Part shown: in pieces, positions 2,109-18,370 of the stretch
How positions within the stretch are numbered: position 1 is the stretch's first letter
How the letters are laid out: the number at the start of each line of letters is the position of its first letter
Assembly (NCBI RefSeq): GCF_002201895.1
Contig: NZ_CP019436.1
Coordinates: 1,059,867-1,091,866 of the forward strand
Reading direction: 5' to 3'
Source of the DNA: Methanopyrus sp. SNP6
GTDB lineage: Archaea > JAADCQ01 > Methanopyri > Methanopyrales > Methanopyraceae
DNA: 32,000 bases
The notes under the pieces: model-generated
Seen by the model: the letters and a program-made list of their open reading frames with translations, nothing else
The model's database searches: none
What the model was told of the DNA's origin: nothing
Program-made: the position numbers and the translations under genes

Positions 2109-2694
2109 GTTTCAGCCCGTACTTCTCGATCTTCTCTGCGATCTTCTTCACGGCCTTCTCAGGTTCCTCTTCGGTCTTAGCCCCCGTACATACGGCCTTA
2201 CCGGAGTAGAACAGGAGCATCGCCACCGTGGGTTCCTTCAGTCTCAGCACCAGCCCTGGGAACTGCTCCGGTTCGTACTCTATCCCTTCGACGTCCTCGT
2301 CTCCCACCAAGACTTCCGCGATCGTGTCCAGGTCCAGTGGTACGTGGAAATCGATCGACGCTACTATGTTCTGGATCTCCACTTCGGGTTCTCCGTGGAA
2401 CTTCACCCCGCACTTCTTCTCCAGGTCTTCCCTAACCCTCTCGACGCTTTTGTAAATCTGCTCCCTATTCTTAGCACCAGTGCACACCATTTTCCCGGAT
2501 CTGAAGATCAATACCACGGTACCGATGTCTTCGAGCCTGTACACGAGTCCCGGAAACTGTTCCGGTTCGTACTCCCCATGTAATATCACGGAGCACTCGT
2601 CCAAGTTCACTTCTCCTTTGAGGTCGACGGATGCTACGATGTTCTGGATCTCCACTTCTGGCTCTGGTACACCCTCCTCACGCCTTTCCGCCAC
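2098..2694 (-). CDS. tbp: TATA-box binding protein
   Basis: Two TBP repeats are present: EVEIQNIVASVDL...EYEPEQFPGLVYRL...FRSGKMVCTGAK and EVEIQNIVASIDF...EYEPEQFPGLVLRL...FYSGKAVCTGAK. It has the acidic/basic C-terminal tail typical of archaeal TBP. Confidence 0.96.
   Translation of the reverse strand: MAERREEGVPEPEVEIQNIVASVDLKGEVNLDECSVILHGEYEPEQFPGLVYRLEDIGTVVLIFRSGKMVCTGAKNREQIYKSVERVREDLEKKCGVKFHGEPEVEIQNIVASIDFHVPLDLDTIAEVLVGDEDVEGIEYEPEQFPGLVLRLKEPTVAMLLFYSGKAVCTGAKTEEEPEKAVKKIAEKIEKYGLKLTG
2366..2658 (-). repeat. Intragenic direct repeat pair inside tbp (20-nt identical cores at 2366-2385 and 2639-2658, offset 273 nt)
   Basis: atgttctggatctccacttc occurs at both positions on the + strand. 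A second near-identical pair, ggaa(a)ctg(c/t)tccggttcgtactc, lies at about 2258-2280 and 2551-2574. They encode the EVEIQNIV and YEPEQFPG parts of the two TBP repeats. Confidence 0.85.
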
Positions 2695-3647
2695 GTCCGA
2701 CTCCCCCCCTCACACGGTAATGCCGGAACGGGTTCTCCCTCCAGGTACCGGAAGCCTAGGAGGCATAAGCCTCGAACTTCCAACTCTTCACCGGCGAAGA
2801 TCGAGACGTCTCCCTCCCAAAGCTCCGACACCCTCCGCTTTAAGAGTTCGTTTTTAACACCACCCCCGGAGAGAATCAGCAAGTTCATGCCGTACTGTGC
2901 CGCGTTAATGACGATAGTCTCCGCCACGATCTCTACCAGGGTACGGAGTACGTCTTCAGCTGGCGCTTCGGTATCTCGAATGTGGCTTCTCAGGACTCGT
3001 TCTTGTTCCGGCGGAACTGGGGCTAGGCTACCTCTCACACGCCCGAAGACGGGTTTCCCGTCGACGTCGACACTTTTCAACTCCCTTCGAAGGTCCTCGT
3101 CGACTTTTCCCTCAGCGGCTTTCCTGCCACCTTCATCGTATTCCTTCCCTAGTAACTCACGTGCGGCCAAGTCGAGCGGGAACGTGCCGACGCCGACCAC
3201 GGCTTCCTCGAAGTCGGGCCTTCCGTCCTTGATCGGAGTCACTACAGCCATTGCTCCTACGTCCACATGTACGCAGTTCGGATACTCCTCCGCGACGCAG
3301 TACGGTGCACCTACCGCGTCCCCGTCGGGTGCCCCCCAGGGGTCCCCGTACACTGCCAGCGTCGGTACACCCGTCTTTTCGTGGATCATGGGTCCGAGGA
3401 TCAGTCCGAGTTCATCGACGATAGTCCCCACAACCACGAGGTCTGGATCAACGCGCTGCACACGCTCGATTACTCTGGGGGCTATCTCCTTCCGCAGTGC
3501 ACGTCGGCTCTCCTCCAGCGTGAACACGCACGAGATCTTGCCGAAAACCCCTTCCTCCCGCGCTACGATCTCCCAATCCCCGTCTTCATTCATAACACAG
3601 TAATCTGTCCCAGTATTCCCAAGCTGAATCCCAAGCACACGCGTCAA
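2634..3647 (-). CDS. ASKHA-superfamily ATPase-like protein (BadF/BcrA/hydantoinase-like; possibly a methanogen-specific marker family)
   Basis: ORF 2634..3755. I place the start at TTG 3647 (GGGGGG lies 6 nt upstream; GTG 3638 is an alternative) because the long form would overlap rpl22. The phosphate-1-like N-terminus LGIQLGNTGTDYCV and the C-terminal LLILSGGGVKNELL are typical ASKHA motifs. The 3' end overlaps tbp by 61 nt. Confidence 0.55.
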   Translation of the reverse strand: MTRVLGIQLGNTGTDYCVMNEDGDWEIVAREEGVFGKISCVFTLEESRRALRKEIAPRVIERVQRVDPDLVVVGTIVDELGLILGPMIHEKTGVPTLAVYGDPWGAPDGDAVGAPYCVAEEYPNCVHVDVGAMAVVTPIKDGRPDFEEAVVGVGTFPLDLAARELLGKEYDEGGRKAAEGKVDEDLRRELKSVDVDGKPVFGRVRGSLAPVPPEQERVLRSHIRDTEAPAEDVLRTLVEIVAETIVINAAQYGMNLLILSGGGVKNELLKRRVSELWEGDVSIFAGEELEVRGLCLLGFRYLEGEPVPALPCEGGSRTWRKGVRRVYQSQKWRSRTS

Positions 3648-3675
3648 CGTCGACCCCCCGACCGTCTCCCGATGA

Positions 3676-3685
3676 CGATTTAAGA
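3676..3685. promoter_or_regulatory. Putative shared TATA element (cgATTTAAGa) between the divergent ASKHA gene and rpl22
   Basis: This is the only AT-rich octamer in the 84-nt divergent spacer. It lies about 50 nt upstream of the rpl22 ATG, with a GGGGGGT SD at 3716-3722 in between, and about 30 nt upstream of TTG 3647 on the other strand. Confidence 0.3.
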
Positions 3686-3731
3686 GCACCCGGGCGCCGG
3701 CGGTGAATCCGGAAACGGGGGGTACTGGATT

Positions 3732-4211
3732 ATGCCGAAGACCAAGCACTGGCACTACTCAATCCCACCGGAAGAGCTTGACGATGAACGGACCGCGAAG
3801 GCCTTCATACGAGAGCTGAGGATCTCCCCGAAGCACGCACGTGAGATATGCCGGGCAATCCGCGGGATGCCCTTAGACAGGGCCAAAGAGTTCCTACGTC
3901 GAGTGATCAGGAAGGAGGAAGCTGTACCGTTCAGGAAACACAAGAAGAAGGTGCCGCACCGTCGGCAGATACGGCCCGGATGGGATGCCGGTCGATTCCC
4001 TGAGAAAGCAGCTCGTGAGATCCTACGCGTCCTAGAGCACGCGGAAGCTAACGCCGAGTACAAGGGGTTAGACACGGACCGCTTGTACATAAAGCACATA
4101 GCGGCGCACAAGGGTAGGGTGATCCGAGGTTGGATACCGCGCGCCTTCGGTCGCGCGACTCCGTTTAACACTCCGACGACTCACATCGAGGTGATCCTAG
4201 AGGAGCGGTGA
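3732..4211 (+). CDS. rpl22: 50S ribosomal protein uL22 (L22P)
   Basis: [38 protein letters not shown]...VPFRKH...[23 protein letters not shown] is a classic archaeal L22. Confidence 0.95.
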
Positions 4212-6193: not shown

Positions 6194-6409
6194 GTGGAAT
6201 TAGTCGGCAAGAAGTTCAGAGTAGTGAGGGCGAACTCCCGGACTTACCTTGGGATATCAGGCCGCGTGGTCGGCTTCACCAAGAACTGTCTGGTCTATGA
6301 TGACGGTAGCGGTGATCAGAAAATACTCCCTCTTCGCCACATCGTGTTGGAGGTGGAAGGACTGCGCATGGATGGCCGTGTGTTACTCATGCTTCTTCAA
6401 GAGCTTTAA
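6194..6409 (+). CDS. rnp1: RNase P protein component 1 (Rnp1/Rpp29/Pop4), minimal 71-aa form
   Basis: VELVGKKFRVVRANSRTYLGISGRVVGFTKNCLVYDDGSGDQKILPLRHIVLEVEGLRMDGRVLL matches the Sm-like core of archaeal Rpp29 (eLIGlkv.vv.s.n....GI.G.VVdET.NtLvI....g....IPK...vF). I start it at GTG 6194. The long track ORF from 5954 would run antisense through the methyltransferase gene. Confidence 0.65.
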   Translation: MELVGKKFRVVRANSRTYLGISGRVVGFTKNCLVYDDGSGDQKILPLRHIVLEVEGLRMDGRVLLMLLQEL

Positions 6410-7122
6410 CAGTTCGATCGGTACTGGAATTACTATGGTGACGTTCTCTTCCGCCGAGATTTCGGAGAGTGTCTGAAGGGTTCTCAGTAAGCCTGGGTTC
6501 ACCCCCTAGGACTTCCGATGCCTTCCGTAGATCTTGTGCGGCCTGTTTCTCCGCTTCCGCTTGGATTATCCTGGCTCGACGATCCCGTTCAGCTTCCGCC
6601 TGTCGGGCTATCGCCCGTCTCATCTCCTCGGGTAATATCACGTCGCGGATCTCGACACCGGTGACGTAGATTCCCCATCCCTCCGTCTTCTCGTCTACGA
6701 TCTCCCGAATACGTTCGCTCAGCTCCTCCCGCTTCGCTAAAAATATCGTCCAAGTCAACTTCGCCGAGCACAGATCTCAGTGTGGTTTGCGCCAAGTTGA
6801 ACACTGCTTCTCCGTAATCCTCGACGTTCATCACGGCGGAGGCAGGATCCACCGCCCGATAATATATGACAGCGTCGACCTTGATCGGTACGTTATCTTT
6901 GGTAATAACCTCCTGGGCCGGTATGTTCTGTGTAACGACCCGAAGATCGACCTTGATCATCTTGTCGATGAACGGAACGATGAAGTTAAGACCTGGTTCC
7001 CTGATCCCGATGTACCGCCTGAGTCGCAGGAGCACGCCTCGCTCGTACTGATTCACTATCCGAACCGAAGCCGCCAGCACGAGAAGGGCCAGTACTCCTC
7101 CAACCACTATCGATACGATCAA
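6383..7122 (-). pseudogene. Stomatin/prohibitin-family (SPFH, band 7) gene interrupted by two +1 frameshifts
   Basis: Three consecutive reading frames each carry a collinear part of one stomatin. Frame A (7122 to ~6740) reads IVNQYERGVLLRLRRYIGIREPGLNFIVPFIDKMIKVDLRVVTQNIPAQEVITKDNVPIKVDAVIYYR...LAQTTLRSVLGEVDLDDI. Frame B (~6740 to ~6505) reads AKREELSERIREIVDEKTEGWGIYVTGVEIRDVILPEEMRRAIARQAEAERDRRARII. Frame C (~6505 to 6383) reads NPGLLRTLQTLSEISAEENVTIVIPVPIELLKLLKKHE*. The switches fall in an A5 run (6739-6743) and a C5 run (6502-6506). Confidence 0.8.
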
Positions 7123-8900: not shown

Positions 8901-10907
8901 TCATCTGATCTGCTCTCCGGGCTCCACTTCCCTCTTACTTTCGTCGATAGTCAACAATGCGGGTTCGTCCCCAACGGCCAGTATCATCGCTTCCGACCGT
9001 ACGCCAAACATCTCTTTGGGCTGGATGTTAGTTAGCACGACCACCTTACGTCCGACGAGTTCCTCCGGCTCATACGTAGGGTACAGTCCGGCTACTGCTG
9101 TTACGGTACGATCCCCGACATCGATCCGGAGCTTGATGAGTCGATCAGATCCCTCGATACGTTCCGCTTCTTTGACCTCGCCTACCCGCAGGTCCAATCG
9201 ATTGAACTCCTCGAGCGATACGTACTCATCGTCCGGCCCTTCGGACTCTCCTAATTCTTCCGGCAGTAACGCCTTAGCTTTCTGAAGGTCCTCCTCCGTT
9301 ACCTTCGGGAAGATGGGTTCAGGCTTCGGGATTTCCCTAGCTTCTACGTCCTTCAAGGCTTCTTCCCAATCGACATCATGTACGGAGTCCTCATAACCGA
9401 GGCTTTGCCACATCTTCTCCGCACTATCCGGAAGGAACGGGGCTAACATTATAGCTAGTGCTTTCACGATCCTAGCGCACCCACGTAGAACCTCGGCACA
9501 ACGCTCTGGATCTTCGTCCTTAAGTTTCCACGGTTCATGTTCTTGGAAATATTCGTTCCCAAACTTAGATAGACGTAATACTTCAGTGAGCGCCTCCCTG
9601 AATCGGAACTTCTCCAGATGTTTCGTCACGCGCCGGTGAGTTTCTTTTATCCTGTCGACTATCTCCTGGTCAGTCTCGGCTTCGGGGACGTTCCCGTCTA
9701 AGAATCTGTAAATGAACGATAGCGTGCGATACACGAAGTTGCCTAAGTTAGCCACTAACTCGTTGTTCACACGGTCTCGGAAGTCTTCCCATGAGAAATC
9801 TGCATCCCTAGTGAGAGGGCTTACCACTATGAGGTAGTATCGTAGTAGATCCGCGGGGAACAACTTAGTGAAGTCTCTAACCCACACTACCCAACCACGA
9901 CTTGTACTCATCTTCTCTCCTTCTAGGGTCAGATACTCACCAGCTACGATAGTGTATGGAAGAGTCGCTCCGACGCCAATGAGCATGGCTGGCCAGAACA
10001 GAGCGTGATGGATTATTATGTCCTTACCGATGAAGTGAACTATTTTCGTATCTTCACTAAACCAGTAGTCTTTCCAGTTCTGGCCTGTTCTATTACAGTA
10101 TTGTTTTGTGAACGTTACGTACCCTATAGGGGCATCGAACCAAACGTAAAACACCTTATCTTCGTATCTTTCCAGAGGAACGGGTACTCCCCAATCTAGA
10201 TCACGTACTATATCCCAATCCTTAAGTCCTTCACGGACCCATTGGATGGCGTAATTACGTACGTTCTTAGGTAGATTATCATTGGACTTTAACCACTTTT
10301 TCAGATCTTCCTCGAACTCACTGAGCTTGAAGAATAGGTGCATAGTGCGCCGGACCTCTGGCTTCGATCCACAAATGACACACCTCGGCTCTTTGAGCTG
10401 TACGGGCTCCAGGTAGCGACCGCAAGCCTCGCAATGGTCGCCTCGGGCACCTTCAGCACCGCAGTAGGGACATACTCCTTCGACGTACCTGTCCGGTAGA
10501 GGTCTTTCGCACTCAGGACAGTAGAGCTGTTCGACCTCTCTTTCCTCTATGTACCCCTCCTCGTATAATCTCTTGAAAAACCATTGTGTCATATCTACGT
10601 GGTCGGGATTGAATTCGCGACAGGTGCATGAGAACTCGTCGAAATGAATGTTCAATCGCTCTAGATCCTCTTCGATCATCTCATGATATTTTTCCACGAT
10701 TTCCTCGGGATCCTTCCCCTCGAGCTCGGCCTGTAGCGCTATAGGGACTCCGTGATTGTCAGTCCCACCGATGTGTATGGCGTCGACGCCACGCATTTTG
10801 AGGAACCTCGTGTACACATCTGCGGGAAGGTACGTACTCCTAACGTGGCCGATGTGGAGCGGGCCGTTAGTGTACGCCAGGGCCGTAGTTACGAGTACCT
10901 TCTCCAT
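8901..10907 (-). CDS. metG: Methionyl-tRNA synthetase with C-terminal tRNA-binding (Trbp111/EMAPII-like) domain
   Basis: HIGH motif (PLHIGHV), KMSKS variant (KMSTSRG), Zn knuckles (CPECERPL...CPYCG...CEACG) and a C-terminal LDLRVGEVKEAERIEGSDRLIKLRIDVG OB domain. I prefer ATG 10907 (MEKVLVTT, GGGGGT 7 nt upstream) over the track start 10928. Confidence 0.95.
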   Translation of the reverse strand: MEKVLVTTALAYTNGPLHIGHVRSTYLPADVYTRFLKMRGVDAIHIGGTDNHGVPIALQAELEGKDPEEIVEKYHEMIEEDLERLNIHFDEFSCTCREFNPDHVDMTQWFFKRLYEEGYIEEREVEQLYCPECERPLPDRYVEGVCPYCGAEGARGDHCEACGRYLEPVQLKEPRCVICGSKPEVRRTMHLFFKLSEFEEDLKKWLKSNDNLPKNVRNYAIQWVREGLKDWDIVRDLDWGVPVPLERYEDKVFYVWFDAPIGYVTFTKQYCNRTGQNWKDYWFSEDTKIVHFIGKDIIIHHALFWPAMLIGVGATLPYTIVAGEYLTLEGEKMSTSRGWVVWVRDFTKLFPADLLRYYLIVVSPLTRDADFSWEDFRDRVNNELVANLGNFVYRTLSFIYRFLDGNVPEAETDQEIVDRIKETHRRVTKHLEKFRFREALTEVLRLSKFGNEYFQEHEPWKLKDEDPERCAEVLRGCARIVKALAIMLAPFLPDSAEKMWQSLGYEDSVHDVDWEEALKDVEAREIPKPEPIFPKVTEEDLQKAKALLPEELGESEGPDDEYVSLEEFNRLDLRVGEVKEAERIEGSDRLIKLRIDVGDRTVTAVAGLYPTYEPEELVGRKVVVLTNIQPKEMFGVRSEAMILAVGDEPALLTIDESKREVEPGEQIR

Positions 10908-10912
10908 ACTGG

Positions 10913-12280
10913 CTACCCCCAAATGCACCGGGCTACGTCCGTGAACGTCACTATCCGAGACACGACCACCCCGTGGCGTCTCAACTGCTTCACCATAGAA
11001 GGTACGAGATTCACCTCGCGATCGACCTCGGCTCCCAGTTCGACCCGGTAGACGCTCCCCATCTTTTTGACGCCGAGGACTCCAACCACACCGCTTGTAG
11101 ACTTCAGGGATTCGGTTAAGTCGCGTGGGGAACCGTACAGGACTCGCAGCTCCAAGATGTACCCGCGAATTTTACGGACCTTCGCTTTGGGAACCCGTGG
11201 TTTGATGCCACACTTCGTTTTCACACAGGCCGTTACGCGGCCGCCGGTGACGCGGATAGAAACCGCTTCCACTCCCGGAATTCGCGACAGTTCGGCGAGT
11301 ACTTCCGCTGGGTTCCCGTCCGACACGTCGACTCGATAGTAATCGTGTTTCGATGCCATCCCTAACGTGGAGCGTAGCAGTTCCGCTACTGGGAGATGGG
11401 GCACGAGCATGCCGAGTAGGCATAACGATACCGCCAGTATGCCCCTTCGAGTGATCCTGTCGGTTGTGGATGGGAGCAGAGAGGATAGGAAAACCGTCCA
11501 GAGGTACGTCAACGTATGATACGTCGGTAGGTAGAACAGGACTTGGCGGAACGCGTCCAGACCTCCTAACACCCCGAGCGAGGTTATCGGTGGAGCGACG
11601 GTTCTGATCCTCGAAGCTAAGAATATCGACAGACCCACGACGGACGGGTTTGCCAACGGTCCGCCGTCCAAGCACCCGAAGCAGAGCAGGAACCCCGCAA
11701 TCGACAAGATGACGGCTTTTTCGGTCCGGTCGGATCGTAAAGGCACTATCCACGCTAGTACTACGTAAGCTATCGCCAGCAAGGCGAATACTGGAAGTGG
11801 TACCCACGGTGGTAGCACGGACGACAGGGGTATGCCGCAGTGGAATTCGATTTTAGGTTCTCCAAATATTGCCGAAATCAGCGTTCCGAGACACGCCTTC
11901 ACGGCGTGACAGTGGTAAAGGGAGGACGTCTCTGGGCGCTCCGTTAGCGTGACTATACAGGTGCCTAAGCCCGGGCTGAACCCGGCTTCATACGTCATCA
12001 GTATCTGGAGCACCGGAGGCACCGCTAGGATGGCCACTATCAGCGCGTACGTCACCCAAGTATCGATCTTCGGGAGGGGTATCCGTGAACGGTACGGGAG
12101 TACGAGGAAAAGCAGGCCGAGGTGTAGGAGAAACATGACGTCCTTAGCTTCAGTTGACCCTAATATTACTGGGTAGAGCGCATCGTGCACCCTCCATTTG
12201 ACCTCGGAGTCGGAGATCAGGACTACGGCGGCCAGTGTCAAACATGCGGCCGATAATAAAATCGGCCCACGGATTCTCAC
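10913..12280 (-). CDS. Uncharacterised polytopic membrane protein fused to a C-terminal soluble domain (paralogue 1, fused form)
   Basis: GTG start at 12280. About 9 hydrophobic helices are followed by ~140 aa of beta/alpha-type sequence (YYRVDVSDGNPAEVLAELSRIPGVEAVSIRV...GSVYRVELGAE). It shares YP.(I/L).GSTEAK, (L/A)HLGL, ETSSL.H.H..KAC.G and (L/V)DGG motifs with ORF 12951..13802. Confidence 0.7.
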   Translation of the reverse strand: MRIRGPILLSAACLTLAAVVLISDSEVKWRVHDALYPVILGSTEAKDVMFLLHLGLLFLVLPYRSRIPLPKIDTWVTYALIVAILAVPPVLQILMTYEAGFSPGLGTCIVTLTERPETSSLYHCHAVKACLGTLISAIFGEPKIEFHCGIPLSSVLPPWVPLPVFALLAIAYVVLAWIVPLRSDRTEKAVILSIAGFLLCFGCLDGGPLANPSVVGLSIFLASRIRTVAPPITSLGVLGGLDAFRQVLFYLPTYHTLTYLWTVFLSSLLPSTTDRITRRGILAVSLCLLGMLVPHLPVAELLRSTLGMASKHDYYRVDVSDGNPAEVLAELSRIPGVEAVSIRVTGGRVTACVKTKCGIKPRVPKAKVRKIRGYILELRVLYGSPRDLTESLKSTSGVVGVLGVKKMGSVYRVELGAEVDREVNLVPSMVKQLRRHGVVVSRIVTFTDVARCIWG

Positions 12281-12333
12281 CGTTGGTTTGCCCGTTATTC
12301 CGTCTTTCCCTACCGCCTATTAACGTTCCCCGG

Positions 12334-12957
12334 TCATAGAACGTATCCCCACTTTACCGGCGTCACGTTGGCGATCCCCACAGGCTTTAGACCGGCTATC
12401 TTCAGTGCGCCAGTAATCGAGTAAGCCACCGGGTACTCCTTCTCTAACGAGGCGACTTCGAATACGTACACCGAACCTCGGCGTTCCACTTTGAATACTG
12501 CGAGAATCGTCGGAGCACTCGCCACTTTGCGTGCAGCTACACTCGCCGGGATCTTCGGATCCTCCGTGGCAACTTCAACCACATAAGCGTTCACGGAGTT
12601 CAAGAATACTGCCGGTGCTTTTCCGAGACCCTCTTTCCTTAACGCCTGACTCAGTTCTTGCGTTAAATCGTACTTCGACACCGGAGTGGGCGCCTTCACT
12701 ATGATATACGCGTCACACGATGAAGGCGCTGTTCTAACTCCTCCCACCCTGATCACATAAGGACACTTAAGCAGTGCCCGTTTAACCTCCTCGGGCTTCA
12801 CCGACCCCTTGACGTTTGTAATCGCCACGTGATAACACCCGACTCTGGCTCCCTTTGAAGAGATCGACCACTGGTAAGCTATCACTCCCATCAACGCACC
12901 GATAGAGGCCGCCGAAATGAGTAGGACGGCTACGATTTTAGTCCTCAACACTACCAC
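12334..12957 (-). CDS. Membrane-anchored protein homologous to the C-terminal domain of paralogue 1 (paralogue 2, split soluble part)
   Basis: I start it at GTG 12957 (AGGAGG 5 nt upstream; it overlaps the TAG of the upstream gene). It has one N-terminal TM (IVAVLLISAASIGALMGVIAY) followed by CYHVAITNVKGSVKPEEVKRALLKCPYVIRV...GSVYVFEVASLE, which parallels the C-terminus of 10913..12280. The track ORF extends to 13140 inside the upstream gene. Confidence 0.6.
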   Translation of the reverse strand: MVVLRTKIVAVLLISAASIGALMGVIAYQWSISSKGARVGCYHVAITNVKGSVKPEEVKRALLKCPYVIRVGGVRTAPSSCDAYIIVKAPTPVSKYDLTQELSQALRKEGLGKAPAVFLNSVNAYVVEVATEDPKIPASVAARKVASAPTILAVFKVERRGSVYVFEVASLEKEYPVAYSITGALKIAGLKPVGIANVTPVKWGYVL

Positions 12958-13802
12958 CCCTGCCTCCTTGCGATCGCGGTCATCAGGAAGAGGGCCACCG
13001 CCCACACTACGGAGTATGGTGCTAATGGGGATGTTAGGTACCAAACTACACGAATCGTCGCCTGAAGGAGCATCGGTGTCAGGCCGATGAGGACGGCGAT
13101 GACCACGTATCGTCGTATGGGAAGCGGTCTTAACGTCCACACGATGAGCATTCCTAGTCCGATAACCATCGGTTTACACATGAACCCTCCATCTACTGCT
13201 CCGAGCACTACGAGAAATCCTGCCCACGAGAGTAGTAGCGATTCGACCGCACTCCCGCGCTTGAGGAACACAGCCAATGGTGATAGGATGGCTAAAACCA
13301 CGTATGATGCGATTACGACGGCGGTGAAGATTGTGGCGGCCCATGTGGGCATGAACTTAGACAGAACAGACCCATAGTGGTACTTAGTCGGAATCGGACC
13401 TATGATGTAGTTCATGATCTTCCCTACACACGCCTTGAGGGAGTGGGTGTGAACCAGCGAGGAGGTCTCACCGACCGACGATCCTCCGGATACGACGACC
13501 AAAGTACCAGCTTTCAGGCCGTACGGGGTGTTGTATTGTAGTATCATCTGGGCTAGGTAGGGACTAGTAATGATCAGAAGCGTAATACATAGTATCAGTC
13601 TCCTCGAAGCGAGGGTCTCGGTCCATCGACTCGGCATCGAGGGGAATGACCAAAGCAATAGGCACATCAGCCCGAGATGGGCTAGTAGTATAGCAGGTTT
13701 AGCCTCGGTGGATCCCGTTAGAAGTGGGTAGAAGAACTCCCTAAAGATTCCATCGAGAGGCGTATCGGTCAGAATAAGGGTGGCAGAGATCAAGAGTAAC
13801 AC
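12951..13802 (-). CDS. Uncharacterised polytopic membrane protein (paralogue 2, split membrane part)
   Basis: 283 aa and about 8 TM helices. It is alignable along its length with residues ~30-300 of 10913..12280 (FYPLLTGSTEAKPAILLAHLGL; GETSSLVHTHSLKACVGKI; GAVDGGF). Confidence 0.7.
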   Translation of the reverse strand: MLLLISATLILTDTPLDGIFREFFYPLLTGSTEAKPAILLAHLGLMCLLLWSFPSMPSRWTETLASRRLILCITLLIITSPYLAQMILQYNTPYGLKAGTLVVVSGGSSVGETSSLVHTHSLKACVGKIMNYIIGPIPTKYHYGSVLSKFMPTWAATIFTAVVIASYVVLAILSPLAVFLKRGSAVESLLLSWAGFLVVLGAVDGGFMCKPMVIGLGMLIVWTLRPLPIRRYVVIAVLIGLTPMLLQATIRVVWYLTSPLAPYSVVWAVALFLMTAIARRQGW

Positions 13803-13824: not shown

Positions 13825-14796
13825 TTACTCGGCTTTGAAGATCTCTTCGACGATCTCCGCGACGGCGCTTCGCCCCCTTCTTATGAGCCACTCTCCGCGC
13901 GGCTTGCTGGCCATTTGGACGGCGTCCTCTGTACCGGAGCTTTCGCTTAAGTACATTACCGGTACGCCGGACTCTTCGGCGATCCAGTGACTCAAGTGCG
14001 TGGGATGCACTTCCGACACCTTCACGGCCTTCTTCGCCACCACACAGGCTTCTATCGTGACCCCGAACCCTCCGGTGAACACTACCGTATCGGCTAGCAT
14101 CATTACTCCGGGTAAATCTACGAATTCCCGAACGCACTCGAAGCCCTCTGGAGGACTTACCCTGAACGGCACCACCACGGGGTCGTGATCCTCGAGATCG
14201 AGGAGCAGTCGTCGAGCTCCTTCCTCCGTGATGTCGCCACCCAAGCATACCAGTACGCGACCTTCGTATTCTTCCGGTACGGGTCCCGGAATACGACCGG
14301 ATAGGTGACGATCCGCCAGGTACTGAGCTAACGGTGCCCCGGAAACCACCTTAGTTTCAACTCCTGCCCGTCGTTCTAGTACTTCCGCCCACCTTTCCGA
14401 GAAGGGCACCAGTACGTGTGTCGCCCATCGGACGGCCTCCACGGGGTTGTACACGTCCATCTCCAAGTGTACTGAAGGGATTCCAAGTATCCGAGACGCT
14501 ATCAGAGACTTCCTAGCGTCCCCGGTGTTACCGGATGAGAGTACCACTGAAGCACGCTCCGACGCCAGAGCCCGTACGGTCCGTATTAAGTCAACGGAGA
14601 ATCCTATATACCCCAGTAATCCTTGCCTCCTTCGGGGCTTTCCCAGCCGCTCCGTCTCGATACCTTCCCATTTTAGTACCTCGACACCACGTCCGTGCCC
14701 GTAGACTGTTACTTCCCACCCTTCCTCTAGGAGTCGCTCCCACACCGGGAGGAGGTTCTTGGCCGGAGACGGTTCTACGAGGCTGAAAACTTTCAT
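13825..14796 (-). CDS. GT-B-fold glycosyltransferase-like protein (MurG/DUF354-like), tentative
   Basis: I use ATG 14796 (MKVFSLVE; GGTGA SD; 4 nt after the hisB stop). There are two Rossmann-like halves: an N-terminal beta-strand plus LLEEGWEVTVYG, and a C-terminal ADTVVFTGGFGVTIEACVVAKKAV reminiscent of the MurG-type donor-binding half. Confidence 0.4.
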   Translation of the reverse strand: MKVFSLVEPSPAKNLLPVWERLLEEGWEVTVYGHGRGVEVLKWEGIETERLGKPRRRQGLLGYIGFSVDLIRTVRALASERASVVLSSGNTGDARKSLIASRILGIPSVHLEMDVYNPVEAVRWATHVLVPFSERWAEVLERRAGVETKVVSGAPLAQYLADRHLSGRIPGPVPEEYEGRVLVCLGGDITEEGARRLLLDLEDHDPVVVPFRVSPPEGFECVREFVDLPGVMMLADTVVFTGGFGVTIEACVVAKKAVKVSEVHPTHLSHWIAEESGVPVMYLSESSGTEDAVQMASKPRGEWLIRRGRSAVAEIVEEIFKAE

Positions 14797-14800
14797 CCGC

Positions 14801-15406
14801 TCACCCGCGTCGGAGTGTTCCTTTAGTTGATGGCACCCCGTCATCGACTACTTCCTTCGCTGCGCCGAGCGCGCGGCCTACAGCCTTAAACATGGCTTCG
14901 ATGGCGTGATGGTCGTTGTCCCACCACCGCACCGCCACGTGCATGGTTACACCGGCGTGATCGCAGAAGCTCTTCCAGAAGTGTGAGACGTTCTCCGTGG
15001 ACAATGGGGGACAACCGATTTTATCGCGTCGAGGTTGATACCCCCTTAGGACGAAGTAGGGCCTCCCGGAGATATCTACGGCACATTCCACCAGCGCTTC
15101 ATCCATGGGCACCAGCGCCCATGCGATTCGTCGGATACCCTCGCGATCTCCGAGTGCTTTGTTCAAAGCTTTACCCAAACATATACCGACGTCCTCGACG
15201 GTATGATGATCGTCGACCTCTAGGTCGCCTCGAGCTTTAATCTCAACATCTATGCGTCCGTGAAAGGCGAACTGGTGCAGGAGGTGGTCGAAAAACGGAA
15301 GACCGGTGTCGACCTTGGCGTGACCGGATCCGTCTAAGTTCACGCTCACCTCAACTTCCGTTTCCTTCGTCGTACGCTTGACATCCGCCGTCCGCACCGA
15401 GTCCAC
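14801..15406 (-). CDS. hisB: Imidazoleglycerol-phosphate dehydratase
   Basis: RTTKETEVEVSVNLDG...DTGLPFFDHLLHQFAFHGRIDVEIKARGDLEVDDHHTVEDVGICLG...VPMDEAL...DISGRPY...HHAIEAMFKAVGRAL. The start is placed at GTG 15406 (201 aa, normal length). The ORF is open to 15502, but that form would overlap the divergent gene. Confidence 0.9.
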   Translation of the reverse strand: MDSVRTADVKRTTKETEVEVSVNLDGSGHAKVDTGLPFFDHLLHQFAFHGRIDVEIKARGDLEVDDHHTVEDVGICLGKALNKALGDREGIRRIAWALVPMDEALVECAVDISGRPYFVLRGYQPRRDKIGCPPLSTENVSHFWKSFCDHAGVTMHVAVRWWDNDHHAIEAMFKAVGRALGAAKEVVDDGVPSTKGTLRRG

Positions 15407-15432
15407 CCCATTGCAAACGTCGGTCGACGGCA

Positions 15433-15441
15433 GTAAATAAC
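15433..15441. promoter_or_regulatory. Putative bidirectional TATA element (GTAAATAAC) for hisB and the divergent OB-fold gene
   Basis: This is the main AT-rich block in the 64-nt spacer. Its centre is ~31 nt from GTG 15406 and ~34 nt from ATG 15471. With archaeal TATA-to-TSS spacing of about 25-27 nt, both mRNAs would be leaderless or nearly so. Confidence 0.3.
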
Positions 15442-15470
15442 GCGAGTGTACGGCTCGATTTAGGGTCCTC

Positions 15471-15815
15471 ATGGAGAAGACGATCTCCATAGTCTGCATC
15501 ACCCTAGGTGCCGTGCTACTTTGGATGTCTTCCGGTACTTCTCATCAGGTGATCGGGGCTAGAGAGTTGCAGTCGACAGATGACGGAACATTAGTAAGGA
15601 TCAAAGGCGAGGTGATGCAGGTGAAGGCAGTGAGCGGCGGCGCGGAAGTTGTCATTCTAGACGCGGGGGACGGGACGGTGACTGTGTTCCTCAGTAGGGA
15701 GGCCGCAAGTACTTTGGCCCCGAGCCCCGGAGAATCGCTGGAAGTGGTAGGAAGAGTGGAAGAATATCGAGGGCGGAAGGAAGTCCGTGTGGATTCGTCA
15801 GTACGTGCTCGGTAA
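15471..15815 (+). CDS. Membrane-anchored OB-fold protein (tRNA_anti/nucleic-acid-binding-like OB domain)
   Basis: An N-terminal TM (ISIVCITLGAVLLWM) is followed by LVRIKGEVMQVKAVSGGAEVVILDAGDGTVTVFLS...GESLEVVGRVEEYRGRKEVRV, the usual OB pattern of that domain. Confidence 0.55.
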   Translation: MEKTISIVCITLGAVLLWMSSGTSHQVIGARELQSTDDGTLVRIKGEVMQVKAVSGGAEVVILDAGDGTVTVFLSREAASTLAPSPGESLEVVGRVEEYRGRKEVRVDSSVRAR

Positions 15816-16602
15816 GGCTCTCATCGTCGTGATCATCGCGACGCTGACGGTTCCGTATTTCGTGTTCTATGGTAAGCCGCGCGGTCCCGGGTACCCTACG
15901 GAGCTGTACGGGTATCGGATCGTACTGAAAGATCCGGCGCTCGCGGTGGTGGACGTGGAACCCAGACGGACCCTGCTGTTCAGGCACACGCTTACGGTGT
16001 CCGATGAGGGTTGGTCCGTGTATCCTGTTCTCGATATACCTCCACTGATACTCGTGCGCGCGGAGCGCATGGATGCCCTCGAAACGGTTAAGAGGAACCT
16101 GTGGGCGGTTGTACTGCAGGAGGGAGCTGGACGTGTGTTCATGCCCGACGAGTTCGTTGAGGGTGGTGTTCCGGGACTCATCACAGGCATAGCCGGCCAG
16201 GCTTGGGCCTGGAAACATCTGAAATGGGCCAGAGAGTTCGGAGTTATTCACGGGCTACGTCGGTACGCTAAGGAGGTAGGACCCGAGCGCGTTTCTACCG
16301 CTATCTTAAAAGAGTATAGGAAGGCACCGTGGCGGGCGGTCCTAGATTTCTGTTACATGATGAAGAACAGCGAAGTAGGGAGATTCCTACGCTCACGTGG
16401 GCTTTCCTTCAGGGATTTCCTCACCAGTAAAGATCCGAAACTAGTGGCGGAAGTCCTAGTCGTGTTGGACCTGGGGAGGCTTGACAAGCGAGTAGTTAAG
16501 GAAAGAATACGGTACGTGTTGGATGCAAGGGCTTACCCCATCCCTAAGCTGGAAGAAAAGATCATGGATAAGGCGGCGCATGAGCTGCTACATCATGGAT
16601 GA
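15787..16602 (+). CDS. Hypothetical membrane-anchored 271-aa protein
   Basis: It has an N-terminal TM (ALIVVIIATLTVPYFVFY) and coding-like composition, and overlaps the upstream OB-fold gene by 11-29 nt depending on the start (GTG 15787 or 15805). I recognise no family. Confidence 0.5.
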   Translation: MWIRQYVLGKALIVVIIATLTVPYFVFYGKPRGPGYPTELYGYRIVLKDPALAVVDVEPRRTLLFRHTLTVSDEGWSVYPVLDIPPLILVRAERMDALETVKRNLWAVVLQEGAGRVFMPDEFVEGGVPGLITGIAGQAWAWKHLKWAREFGVIHGLRRYAKEVGPERVSTAILKEYRKAPWRAVLDFCYMMKNSEVGRFLRSRGLSFRDFLTSKDPKLVAEVLVVLDLGRLDKRVVKERIRYVLDARAYPIPKLEEKIMDKAAHELLHHG

Positions 16603-17516
16603 AGCTCGATCCCGAGGGCTTCACAGATCTCCTTGTATCGGTTTCGGATAGTAACTTCAGTAACTCGAGCAACCTCCGCGATCTCCTTCTGAGTACGTCT
16701 CTCTCCCTCAAGAATAGACGCTATGTATAGTGCAGCCGCGGCTACACCAGCCGGTCCCTTACCCACGGTGATGCCTTTCTCTTTGGCCTTCTCGATAATC
16801 TCTTGAGCCTTAGCCTGGACGTTCTCGGAGACCCCTAACTTTGAGGCGAACCTGGGCAGGTGATCGGAGGGTTCAGCCGGCTTCTGCTTCAGGTTCAGCC
16901 GACGTTGCAGTACTCGATAAGCCCGGAGTACCTCGTTTTCATCCGAGACTCCAAGCGCCTCCGCGATCTCGCGGGCAGTCCGGGGCACGCGAGCTTCTTT
17001 GCACGCGGCGAACACCGCAGCTCCCAAAACGCTCTCTATGCCGCGGCCACGCACGATCCCTTCTTTGTACGCCTTCCTGTATATCGAGGCGGCGAGTTCC
17101 CTGACCGACTCGGGTAGCTGGAGCTTGGACGCGAGATTCTCCAGCTCCAGAAACGCCTGGAAAAAGTTCCTTTCCCTACTTCCAGATACTTTGATACGTG
17201 CATCCCAGGTACGGATGCGCCGCATCCGGGGGTTCTTTTTCCCACCGGAATCGCGCAACTCCCGGTCTATAATCGTGGATATTCCCTTATCCGGTAACCT
17301 CAGCTTAACGGGCTCTCCAGTTCGAGACCTCCGTTGCCTCTGGTCCTGGTTAAAATGCCGCCACTCAGGGCCGGGATCTATCACCGGATCTTCAGTGACC
17401 AGTCCGCAGTCCGCGCAGACGTACTCACCCCGCTCTTCATCGAAAACAATTTCTGCGGAACCACACACCGGACACTCTTCCGTGAGCTTCCCGGGATTCT
17501 TTCCAGAAGCAGCCAT
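16593..17516 (-). CDS. tfb: Transcription initiation factor TFB (TFIIB homologue)
   Basis: Zn ribbon CPVCGSAEIVFDEERGEYVCADCGLV, B-finger/linker, and two cyclin repeats (AFLELENLASKLQLPESVRELAASIYRKA...; ...EIAEVARVTEVTIRNRYKEI). Confidence 0.96.
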   Translation of the reverse strand: MAASGKNPGKLTEECPVCGSAEIVFDEERGEYVCADCGLVTEDPVIDPGPEWRHFNQDQRQRRSRTGEPVKLRLPDKGISTIIDRELRDSGGKKNPRMRRIRTWDARIKVSGSRERNFFQAFLELENLASKLQLPESVRELAASIYRKAYKEGIVRGRGIESVLGAAVFAACKEARVPRTAREIAEALGVSDENEVLRAYRVLQRRLNLKQKPAEPSDHLPRFASKLGVSENVQAKAQEIIEKAKEKGITVGKGPAGVAAAALYIASILEGERRTQKEIAEVARVTEVTIRNRYKEICEALGIELHP

Positions 17517-17531
17517 TCTCGATACACCCCA

Positions 17532-17813
17532 TCATCTGCGGCGGCGGGGTCGACCCCGCCGCCTACGGGGAGGCCTCCGCCGCCGTTTAGGTGGTATGAA
17601 AAGCTCCTTCCCGACGAACCTCTCGAGGTGGTGTCGAGACTTATCTCGGACGGCCACGTAGGGCTTATCCGCAGGTCCAAAAACGTCTACAATAACACCT
17701 ACGCGCTCACGACGGCGAGTTACAACGGGTGCCCCTAAAGGCGGTACGTGATCGGCCCTCGCGATGAGATTTCCCCTGGGCGTAACGTGGAGGGCGCGCC
17801 CCAGCCTGCGCAT
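17532..17813 (-). CDS. gar1: H/ACA RNP protein Gar1 with Arg/Pro-rich C-terminal tail
   Basis: LGRALHVTPRGNLIARADHVPPLGAPVVTRRRERVGVIVDVFGPADKPYVAVR matches the Gar1 barrel (G.v.h....livk.....p.lg..V......iG.v.dvfGPv..PY). The gar1-tfb adjacency is the usual archaeal arrangement. The tail is KRRRRPPRRRRGRPRRRR. Confidence 0.8.
   Translation of the reverse strand: MRRLGRALHVTPRGNLIARADHVPPLGAPVVTRRRERVGVIVDVFGPADKPYVAVRDKSRHHLERFVGKELFIPPKRRRRPPRRRRGRPRRRR
17540..17563. repeat. Perfect 24-nt palindrome GGCGGCGGGGTCGACCCCGCCGCC
   Basis: Checked base by base: positions 17540-17551 are the exact reverse complement of 17552-17563, and the flanking pair 17539/17564 mismatches. It lies in the last codons of gar1, 9 nt upstream of the tfb SD (GGGGTG) and 23 nt upstream of the tfb ATG. 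Confidence 0.95.
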
Positions 17814-17893: not shown

Positions 17894-18370
17894 TTATCTG
17901 TTGGCACATTCCGAGCACACATCGAGTTTCTTGTTGCCCTTGAACTTCTTCCCACACACCTTACACGTACACTCGTACAGCTTTGCTCGCTTACCTTCGA
18001 GCTCGGCTTCCCTCTTGATCCGGCATGTCCTCTCTAGCTCTCGACGGAGGTAGAACCAGGTATCGCCGAACACGTCCCTACCACGCATTACCACTCTCCT
18101 GGCGACCTCGAGTCCATTGTCGTCACTATTATTCATAGCACGTACCATTGCACTCAAGAACTGACGCTCTCGATACCTGTAAAGGTCTATAGCGTCGTTG
18201 GGGCAGACACGCACGCACTTATCGCAAGCGTCACATGCCTCCAGGTCTGCGATGACCACCTCTTCATCCTTGATTTTCAACACTCCTCTCTCACAAACCT
18301 CAACGCAGAGCGCGCAGGAGGCTCCATCACATCTGGTCCGGTCGATCTCGATACGACGGACTACCTGCAC
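17894..18370 (-). CDS. Ferredoxin-domain protein (2 x [4Fe-4S]-type Cys motifs) with helical linker and C-terminal zinc ribbon
   Basis: CDGASCALCVEVCE (Cx4Cx2Cx3C) and CDACDKCVRVCP (canonical CxxCxxCxxxCP) at the N-terminus; C-terminal CTCKVCGKKF...CSEC. GTG start at 18370 preceded by a G7 run. Confidence 0.7.
   Translation of the reverse strand: MQVVRRIEIDRTRCDGASCALCVEVCERGVLKIKDEEVVIADLEACDACDKCVRVCPNDAIDLYRYRERQFLSAMVRAMNNSDDNGLEVARRVVMRGRDVFGDTWFYLRRELERTCRIKREAELEGKRAKLYECTCKVCGKKFKGNKKLDVCSECANR

Follow-up and report, generated by a model that had tools for sequence, protein, structure and literature searches.

Why should two related and neighbouring membrane proteins of a methanogen be encoded in different ways, one as a single polypeptide and the other as two, and what might such proteins do? 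These questions are raised by a locus of Methanopyrus sp. SNP6 (RefSeq assembly GCF_002201895.1), within a stretch of 32,000 nucleotides of contig NZ_CP019436.1 (positions 1,059,867 to 1,091,866 of the forward strand), hereafter referred to as the window. Two modules lie there on the minus strand. Module 1 is a fused protein of 455 aa (positions 10913..12280), and module 2, of 283 aa (12951..13802), consists of the membrane domain only and is followed by a separate split gene (12334..12957) coding for 204-207 aa. The two membrane domains prove to be true paralogues and belong to a family nearly confined to the two orders that make pseudomurein, in which a small set of polar residues has been kept without exception. 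We tentatively propose, at somewhat less than even chances, that the family constitutes an outer-face membrane enzyme of envelope glycan assembly acting on a lipid-linked intermediate, possibly in pseudomurein synthesis.

Paralogous membrane domains, one fused and one split

The three open reading frames (ORFs) were all confirmed at the above coordinates on the minus strand. An earlier note on this DNA, made from the sequence alone, had described the two membrane ORFs as paralogues over about 270 residues. The paralogy is borne out: BLASTP aligned module 1 with module 2 at an E value of 2e-27 (30% identity and 53% positives over 223 residues), and their local Smith-Waterman score of 303 lies far above the 42±7 obtained with 500 shuffles of module 2 (z = 37, shuffle maximum 77). 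Its extent holds strongly over about 225 residues, beyond which a weaker MAFFT alignment reaches to about 270. Together with the helices of the structural model described below, these comparisons delimit the membrane domain of module 1 to residues 1-270 (11471..12280). Every shared motif that had been quoted is present in both copies, in the paired blocks YPVILGSTEAK/YPLLTGSTEAK, LHLGL/AHLGL, ETSSLYHCHAVKACLG/ETSSLVHTHSLKACVG and LDGGP/VDGGF.

The fused architecture of module 1 was examined on an AlphaFold2 model built on the 42-sequence alignment of the superfamily (mean predicted local distance difference test, pLDDT, of 79; pTM of 0.76), in which the helical membrane core is well predicted and residues 227-273 are poorly predicted. 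As previously suggested, the membrane domain of the first copy runs in the model through one more transmembrane (TM) helix into a soluble domain: within residues 271-455 (10916..11470), a predicted cytoplasmic loop (DRITRRG) leads into the last TM helix (275-295), which is followed by a tandem ferredoxin/ACT-like domain with a pI of 10.0. This soluble domain, of about 150 aa (312-445), shows the order b-a-b-b-b-a-b-b-a-b. The predicted product of the split gene has one N-terminal TM helix followed by b-a-b-b-(a)-b-a-b-b-a-b, again a tandem ferredoxin/ACT-like domain and likewise basic (pI 9.6), in a model whose best pLDDT is 69, the other four models being poor.

The junction between module 2 and the split gene is as the earlier note had reported it. 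The GTG at 12957 overlaps the end of module 2 (TAG at 12951-12953) and stands 5 nt downstream of an AGGAGG Shine-Dalgarno-like box placed inside the end of module 2 (12963..12968), and the box indicates that the two genes are translationally coupled. GTG 12951 and TTG 12948, where homologues start, are equally possible initiation codons. The break also falls at a domain boundary, in the short basic loop that precedes the last TM helix: module 1 reads ...STTDRITRRG at this point, whereas module 2 ends in a predicted cytoplasmic loop with ...ARRQGW and its stop codon, and the next gene begins with MVVLRTK. A longer ORF of the mechanical list, 12334-13140, is an out-of-frame upstream extension over module 2 and was discarded as a gene.

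Whether the split gene carries the equivalent of the last TM helix and soluble domain of module 1, as had been claimed, is answered mainly by structure and charge. Sequence similarity between the two is weak, with no BLASTP match between module 1 and the split gene and a Smith-Waterman comparison of the soluble parts (z = 3.9) in which the observed score of 53 falls below the best of 500 shuffles (57). Profile comparison with hhalign aligned the soluble parts collinearly over 136 columns with an E value of 2.4e-4 and a probability of 44%, the single large gap falling exactly at the extra helix of the split protein. The secondary-structure order matches, the Foldseek searches with the models of module 1 and of the split gene product return the same neighbours in the PDB (tandem ACT or ferredoxin-like proteins), and both domains share a basic charge, cytoplasmic enzymes of the same window having pI values of 4.6-6.3; because of these three features in the main, we consider homology of the two soluble domains probable.

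Both soluble domains can be described as two consecutive b-a-b-b-(a-b) units, and in the predicted models the soluble part adopts the b-a-b-b-a-b fold that characterizes ACT domains. Their best Foldseek neighbours are tandem ACT proteins such as IlvH, the small subunit of acetohydroxyacid synthase (AHAS; 2f1f), and the beta subunit of aspartate kinase (2dt9), with E values of 2.7e-4 to 6e-3 and probabilities of 0.94-0.99. However, the TM-scores are 0.25-0.36 and the identities 9-18%, no Pfam match to the ACT sequence family appears at E <= 1, and the domain differs from ACT domains in being membrane-tethered, predicted to be extracytoplasmic and very basic.

Distribution, history and identity of the family

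An exhaustive HMMER profile search over 1.84 billion representatives yielded 42 clusters at the cut-off of E <= 1e-3, mostly from Methanobacteriales. All source-named matches at E <= 1e-8 come from Methanopyrus, Methanobrevibacter, Methanothermobacter or Methanobacteriales, those between 4e-15 and about 1e-8 being hypothetical proteins of Methanobrevibacter, Methanothermobacter and other Methanobacteriales. These Methanobacteriales relatives are fused and consist of the membrane domain, the last TM helix and a short C-terminal domain. Weaker matches (E values of 1e-6 to 1e-3) correspond to longer proteins from bacteria resembling the candidate phyla radiation (CPR-like) and from another archaeon. 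Word-indexed searches found relatives only in Methanopyrus and related metagenome-assembled genomes; among these, proteins of Methanopyrus sp. and of strain KOL6 are 98-99% identical to module 1.

In the three other Methanopyri lineages found (loci L001/L002, L003 and L004), module 2 and the split gene are adjacent, with a glycosyltransferase (GT)-like gene just upstream. The longer loci L003 and L004 were read throughout and have hisB, the GT-like gene, module 2, the split gene and metG in this order, with module 2 and the split gene tightly coupled and module 1 absent. The split gene retains 60-92% identity across the Methanopyri lineages, with intact ORFs. The survey of related genomes for both forms that had been recommended showed the split form in all Methanopyri lineages found and the fused form in Methanobacteriales; among Methanopyri, the fused paralogue is seen only in the genus Methanopyrus. 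Judging from these sequences, the split form is old and universal in Methanopyri. Because the split recurs, with the two genes closely coupled each time, in all the Methanopyri lineages that were found, an assembly artefact can be ruled out.

A neighbour-joining tree built on the membrane domain places module 1 as the sister of the module 2 sequences as a whole; bootstrap support for this is 87-100% according to the distance measure used, and that for the Methanopyri clade is 85-98%. Two histories would give this branching order, an early duplication after which module 1 was lost elsewhere, or faster evolution of module 1. Could the split copy instead be a decaying duplicate, with only the fused copy functional? 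It does adjoin an intact fused paralogue, and in strain KOL6 RefSeq gives module 2 as a short protein (198 or 235 aa). Nevertheless, the split pair is present, with coupled junctions, in every Methanopyri lineage found, including the three lacking module 1, and module 2 retains all the superfamily-invariant residues described below; we regard decay as very improbable indeed, and this conservation excludes reading the split copy as a pseudogene. Public calls of module 2 in KOL6 and related assemblies have 198, 228 or 235 aa, compared with 283 aa here; the short calls omit the first TM helix and the GSTEAK motif, and the long form is backed by the related lineages.

The proteins have been catalogued before. 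Module 1 is 98% identical to a database representative (P0002) whose 90% cluster holds AAM02064.1 of M. kandleri AV19, named [quoted passage not shown] in the AV19 annotation of 2002, and by this sequence identity module 1 is a member of the MK-15 family. Although the name denotes a family specific to M. kandleri, the relatives span Methanobacteriales, other archaea and bacteria. More recently, OG0001024 was reported among five groups that have no known function and occur exclusively in pseudomurein archaea; its members carry no known domain and comprise one polytopic protein in each of four Methanobacteriales genomes and two in Methanopyrus sp. KOL6, WP_088335987.1 (6 TM helices) and WP_088335989.1 (4), whose accessions are two apart (Lupo et al. 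2025, mSystems, PMC11915815). The family is probably OG0001024, as we infer from this pattern of members, since the spacing of the KOL6 accessions fits the succession of module 1, split gene and module 2. The current KOL6 RefSeq accessions WP_157666079.1 and WP_157666080.1 do not occur in the tables of that study, and none of the accessions listed for OG0001024 appeared in our three look-ups of 90% clusters. Both the AV19 annotation and Lupo et al. list the proteins without describing them. This is therefore not a new sequence family but one already catalogued as MK-15, probably also as OG0001024, and uncharacterised.

Consistent with the statement of the earlier note that neither domain could be assigned to a known family, neither the three proteins nor the full set of 42 superfamily members gave a consistent match in Pfam or NCBIfam, and when the membrane-family and split-gene alignments were used as profiles against PDB sequences, no match had an E value below 0.2. 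When the full module 1 model was compared with the PDB by Foldseek, the best matches fell on the soluble domain and none had an E value below 1e-3. The UniRef name "DUF1616" carried by one Methanothermobacter member was rejected, as neither P0032, of the same 90% cluster, nor any other member matches PF07760 at E <= 1.

Invariant residues, gene neighbourhoods and possible function

Five residues, H123, H125, K128, D205 and G206 in module 1 numbering, are each present in 42 of the 42 superfamily sequences. G41 and G207 are found in 41, and K46 in 39, two others having Arg at that position; Ser or Thr nearly always occupies positions 118-119, and position 147 is His, Asp or Asn in 39/42. In module 1 these residues define the motifs G-S-T-E-A-K (G41...K46, 12143..12160; near-invariant as G-x-(S/T)-x-x-K), H-C-H-A-V-K (H123, H125 and K128; 11897..11914) and D-G-G at the predicted outer end of a TM helix (D205-G207, 11660..11668), and module 2, which keeps all the superfamily-invariant residues, carries the corresponding G-S-T-E-A-K (13698..13715), H-T-H-S-L-K (13434..13451) and D-G-G (13185..13193). 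The earlier note had stressed invariant His and Cys residues. The two His residues, together with the Lys and Asp, are indeed invariant, whereas the Cys of "KAC" occurs in only 12/42 sequences, essentially those of Methanopyri, and a Cys-based catalytic site of the archaeosortase type was ruled out on account of this confinement. Catalysis or metal binding by the invariant polar residues, also suggested previously, appears plausible from their conservation.

From the helix positions of the module 1 model and the charge of the loops delimited by them, we infer about nine TM helices, with the N-terminus inside and the C-terminus outside. The mean density of Lys and Arg over the 42 sequences alternates in successive loops (0.20, 0.05, 0.19, 0.06, 0.25, 0.00 and 0.20), and the internal N-terminus is proposed because this alternation fits the positive-inside rule. 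In the model, TM2 begins with G-x-S/T-x-x-K, a beta-hairpin precedes S/T-S/T-x-x-x-H-x-H-x-x-K, and TM5 ends with D-G-G, so that under this orientation all three motifs and the C-terminal domain would be placed on the outer face. An external location of the basic soluble domain also fits its charge, given the acidic cytoplasmic proteins of the organism.

The gene neighbourhoods link the family to glycosyltransferases. In five of six Methanobacteriales loci, from Methanobrevibacter cuticularis (L005), Methanothermobacter (L006 and L007) and further Methanobacteriales (L014 and L015), the family gene is directly followed by a GT2 plus Glyco_trans_1_3/Glyco_tran_28_C (MurG-like) glycosyltransferase, from which it is separated by 6 to about 285 bp or with which it overlaps. 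TFB and Gar1 genes come next after the glycosyltransferase in the Methanobacteriales loci, and the same two genes (16593..17813, minus strand) lie 3-4 kb from the modules in the window, providing synteny anchors common to both. The glycosyltransferase is itself found fused or split, its GT2 and MurG-like GT-B domains being fused in L005 (9524-11605), L006 (8963-10717) and L015 (7123-9042) and encoded by two genes in L014 (4478-6323). Among more distant relatives, that of an unrelated archaeon (L011) is flanked by GT2 and GT4 genes, five further ones lie within 0-3 genes of a gene of the CarS-like lipid cytidylyltransferase family, and an LPG_synthase_TM gene is nearby in three loci. On three CPR-like contigs (L008 7484-9706, L009 7493-9916 and L010 1039-3462) the distant member stands between a prepilin-type (N_methyl) gene and a CarS-like (CDP-archaeol synthase family) gene, a recurrent trio with overlapping or abutting ORFs.

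In the window, the minus-strand order is hisB (14801-15502), GT-like gene, module 2, split gene, module 1 and metG (8901-10928), with gaps of at most 53 nt, forming the single gene string that the earlier note had recognised. The GT-like neighbour (13825..14844, with a likely start at ATG 14796, MKVFSL...), which is syntenic in L001-L004, had been called GT-B-like. Its matches, of GT4 and 2-epimerase type, are all sub-threshold (Glyco_transf_4, E 0.0075-0.07; Glyco_trans_4_4, E 0.0011; Epimerase_2, E 0.34; a UDP-sugar 2-epimerase in the PDB, E 0.024), and it is a putative GT-B-fold protein, either a glycosyltransferase or 2-epimerase-like. Orthology with the GT2/MurG-like neighbour of Methanobacteriales was not supported, BLASTP and hhalign both being negative and no profile similarity to the Glyco_trans_1_3 domain of that neighbour being seen. 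A separate MurG-like GT28 protein of M. kandleri, Q8TYD0, has been reported in the Agl24 paper.

Pseudomurein is found in two orders, Methanopyrales and Methanobacteriales, and no homologue of bacterial transglycosylases or transpeptidases has been detected in these organisms, in which unnamed TM proteins restricted to pseudomurein species were noticed (Leahy et al. 2010; Subedi et al. 2021). The substrate of the proposed outer-face enzyme would be a glycan joined to a lipid, probably to a polyprenyl (pyro)phosphate, and supplied by the cytoplasmic glycosyltransferase or glycosyltransferases encoded next door, and the polymer in Methanopyrales and Methanobacteriales would be pseudomurein or a wall-attached glycopolymer. 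The invariant polar set at the outer membrane boundary would form the active or binding site, in which the Lys and His residues may hold phosphates and the Asp or a His may act as base, while the basic ectodomain, tethered by the last helix, would interact with the anionic wall. Module 2 and the split gene product would act as two coupled polypeptides, presumably reassembling in the membrane. A more specific version, which we consider unlikely, is that the family is the pseudomurein glycan-strand polymerase (transglycosylase) or performs another essential outer-face step, with a fold unrelated to SEDS or GT51; Methanopyrus would then have two specialised versions, of which one is built from two polypeptides. 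No transglycosylase, penicillin-binding protein or SEDS homologue is known for pseudomurein (Leahy et al. 2010; Subedi et al. 2021).

Several observations weigh against assigning the family to envelope glycan assembly. The membrane domain shows no sequence or fold similarity to any known enzyme of lipid-linked glycans, or to anything else. Distant relatives occur in organisms without pseudomurein, namely the CPR-like bacteria and another archaeon, hence the function of the superfamily cannot be pseudomurein-specific. The C-terminal domain of the Methanobacteriales proteins shows no detectable profile similarity to the soluble domains of Methanopyrus (hhalign probabilities of 2% and 0.2%), one Methanobacteriales locus (L013) has no downstream glycosyltransferase, and the neighbour in Methanopyrus is weakly GT-B-like and has no profile similarity to the glycosyltransferase of Methanobacteriales. 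Finally, the genes lie outside both recognised pseudomurein gene clusters, and the rest of the window consists of housekeeping genes.

Comparison with known outer-face enzymes acting on polyprenyl-linked glycans, such as the GT-C (AglB/PglB, ArnT, YfhO and GtrC), SEDS (RodA/FtsW) and Wzy/WaaL families, provides a functional analogy only. Like the proteins studied here, they are polytopic, have conserved charged residues at the outer boundary, often carry an extracytoplasmic domain, and are encoded beside GT2 or GT-B genes. However, H-x-H-x-x-K and D-G-G are not motifs of these families. For GT-C, no Pfam or NCBIfam match was obtained, no GT-C structure is among the 50 best PDB matches listed, and the catalytic Asp or Glu that GT-C enzymes bear in the first extracytoplasmic loop has no conserved counterpart, the column of D24, in the first outer loop, being Asp in only 16/42 sequences with no conservation of an acidic residue; for SEDS and Wzy/WaaL, neither PF01098, PF04932 nor a structure was matched. 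TIGR04370 ("oligosaccharide repeat unit polymerase") matched one of the 42 members in isolation, with an E value of 0.003, far below its cut-off. In OatA and OafA, which belong to the AT3-SGNH proteins, a polytopic catalytic membrane domain is joined by one linking TM helix to an extracytoplasmic domain. Module 1 shares this overall architecture, but Acyl_transf_3 was matched below threshold in only 1/42 members (E 0.01) and there is no SGNH domain.

An alternative is that the proteins are transporters or flippases that move a lipid-linked precursor or a solute along a path lined by the charged residues, with the ectodomain serving as a "porter" that binds the substrate or gates its passage. 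A protein of about nine TM helices whose invariant charged residues stand where helices end would suit such a role, as would genes adjoining glycosyltransferases and near LPG_synthase_TM genes. The module 1 model also gives low-probability Foldseek matches (0.10-0.16) to the resistance-nodulation-division pumps AcrB, CmeB and CusA, whose periplasmic subdomains are likewise ferredoxin-like, and the split-gene model matches a membrane protein of 1026 residues, 5t0o_B, with a probability of 0.99. Nevertheless, no transporter family was matched in Pfam, NCBIfam or the PDB, all the invariant polar residues are predicted to lie at the same membrane face instead of lining a route across it, and a separate flippase homologue has been reported in pseudomurein methanogens (Subedi et al. 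2021). We judge transport to be improbable.

Somewhat similar doubts attend a membrane metallohydrolase or peptidase, in which H123, H125 and D205 would bind a metal such as Zn and the enzyme would cut or remodel wall peptides, anchors or signal sequences outside the cell. Site-2 proteases (peptidase M50) use HExxH...LDG, with a metal site of two His and one Asp. The present proteins, likewise polytopic, recall these sites by two invariant His residues close together and by an invariant Asp-Gly(-Gly) where a helix ends; position 147 is His, Asp or Asn in most members, as given above, and no enzymes of pseudomurein cross-linking and turnover are known from the literature either. However, H-x-H-x-x-K contains no Glu, no catalytic Glu stands beside the His residues, HExxH is absent, neither PF02163 (M50) nor any other peptidase family of Pfam was matched, and the site is predicted at the outer surface instead of within the membrane. 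The conserved linkage, moreover, is to glycosyltransferases and not to peptide-stem or protease genes, and transglutaminases are the favoured candidates for cross-linking (Lupo et al. 2025, PMC11915815), all of which makes a peptidase quite improbable. A non-catalytic scaffold or sensor, with the membrane domain anchoring an ACT-like ectodomain whose role would be to sense a small molecule or to organise proteins of wall synthesis, draws on the best fold neighbours being tandem ACT regulatory domains (aspartate kinase, the AHAS small subunit and SerB2, with the probabilities of 0.94-0.99 given above). Yet the TM-scores do not exceed 0.36, and the same searches match RRM, BMC and designed proteins, as expected of a generic ferredoxin-like fold; the invariant residues sit in the membrane domain whereas the ectodomain is not conserved between the two orders, and ACT domains are typically cytoplasmic while the soluble domain is predicted here to be outside. 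This possibility seems more doubtful still.

Other genes of the window and implications for the family

As listed, metG starts at GTG 10928 and extends 16 nt into the end of module 1. Since the metG orthologues of L003 and L004 start at the position of an internal ATG (MEKVLV..., about 10907), the real metG and module 1 probably just abut within positions 10907-10928. On the other side of the gene string, between TFB and hisB, two overlapping plus-strand genes (15471-15815 and 15787-16602) are kept at the same place in L003 and L004; one encodes a small OB-fold protein with an N-terminal TM helix and the other a protein of 271 aa with no Pfam match. Adjoining Gar1 on the minus strand, a protein of 158 aa (17894-18370) with an N-terminal 4Fe-4S dicluster domain and a Cys-rich, zinc-ribbon-like C-terminus is kept at the same place in L003. 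A minus-strand ORF of 123 aa (6387-6758) matches the SPFH/Band 7 profile only in its last, C-terminal third (111-176 of 176 positions), and the syntenic region of L003 contains a full SPFH gene of 252 aa; the ORF may represent a truncated, frameshifted or mis-started SPFH gene. Beside the TBP gene, a minus-strand ORF of 373 aa (2634-3755) matches PF03702 (AnmK) with an E value of 6.5e-13 over residues 162-327 only, and a homologue of a kinase of the murein-recycling type (anhydro-N-acetylmuramic acid) deserves attention in a pseudomurein archaeon.

Beyond the earlier catalogues, the present analysis contributes the anatomy of the proteins, an invariant site common to the whole superfamily, a predicted topology, the conserved linkage to glycosyltransferases, the fused and split history, and a wider superfamily. 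Because one copy is naturally fused and the other split, the pair reveals a domain boundary that could help in designing expression and structural studies, and the membrane domain combines a confident model with the lack of a solved structural relative. Pseudomurein is the only archaeal analogue of bacterial peptidoglycan, and the cytoplasmic ligases and an MraY-like enzyme of its synthesis are known. Because the family is nearly confined to the two pseudomurein orders, is closely linked to genes for GT2 and MurG-like glycosyltransferases, and has an invariant polar site and a basic domain predicted to face the wall, it provides a concrete, genetically testable candidate for one of the missing outer-face steps of wall assembly, and possibly a target against methanogens.

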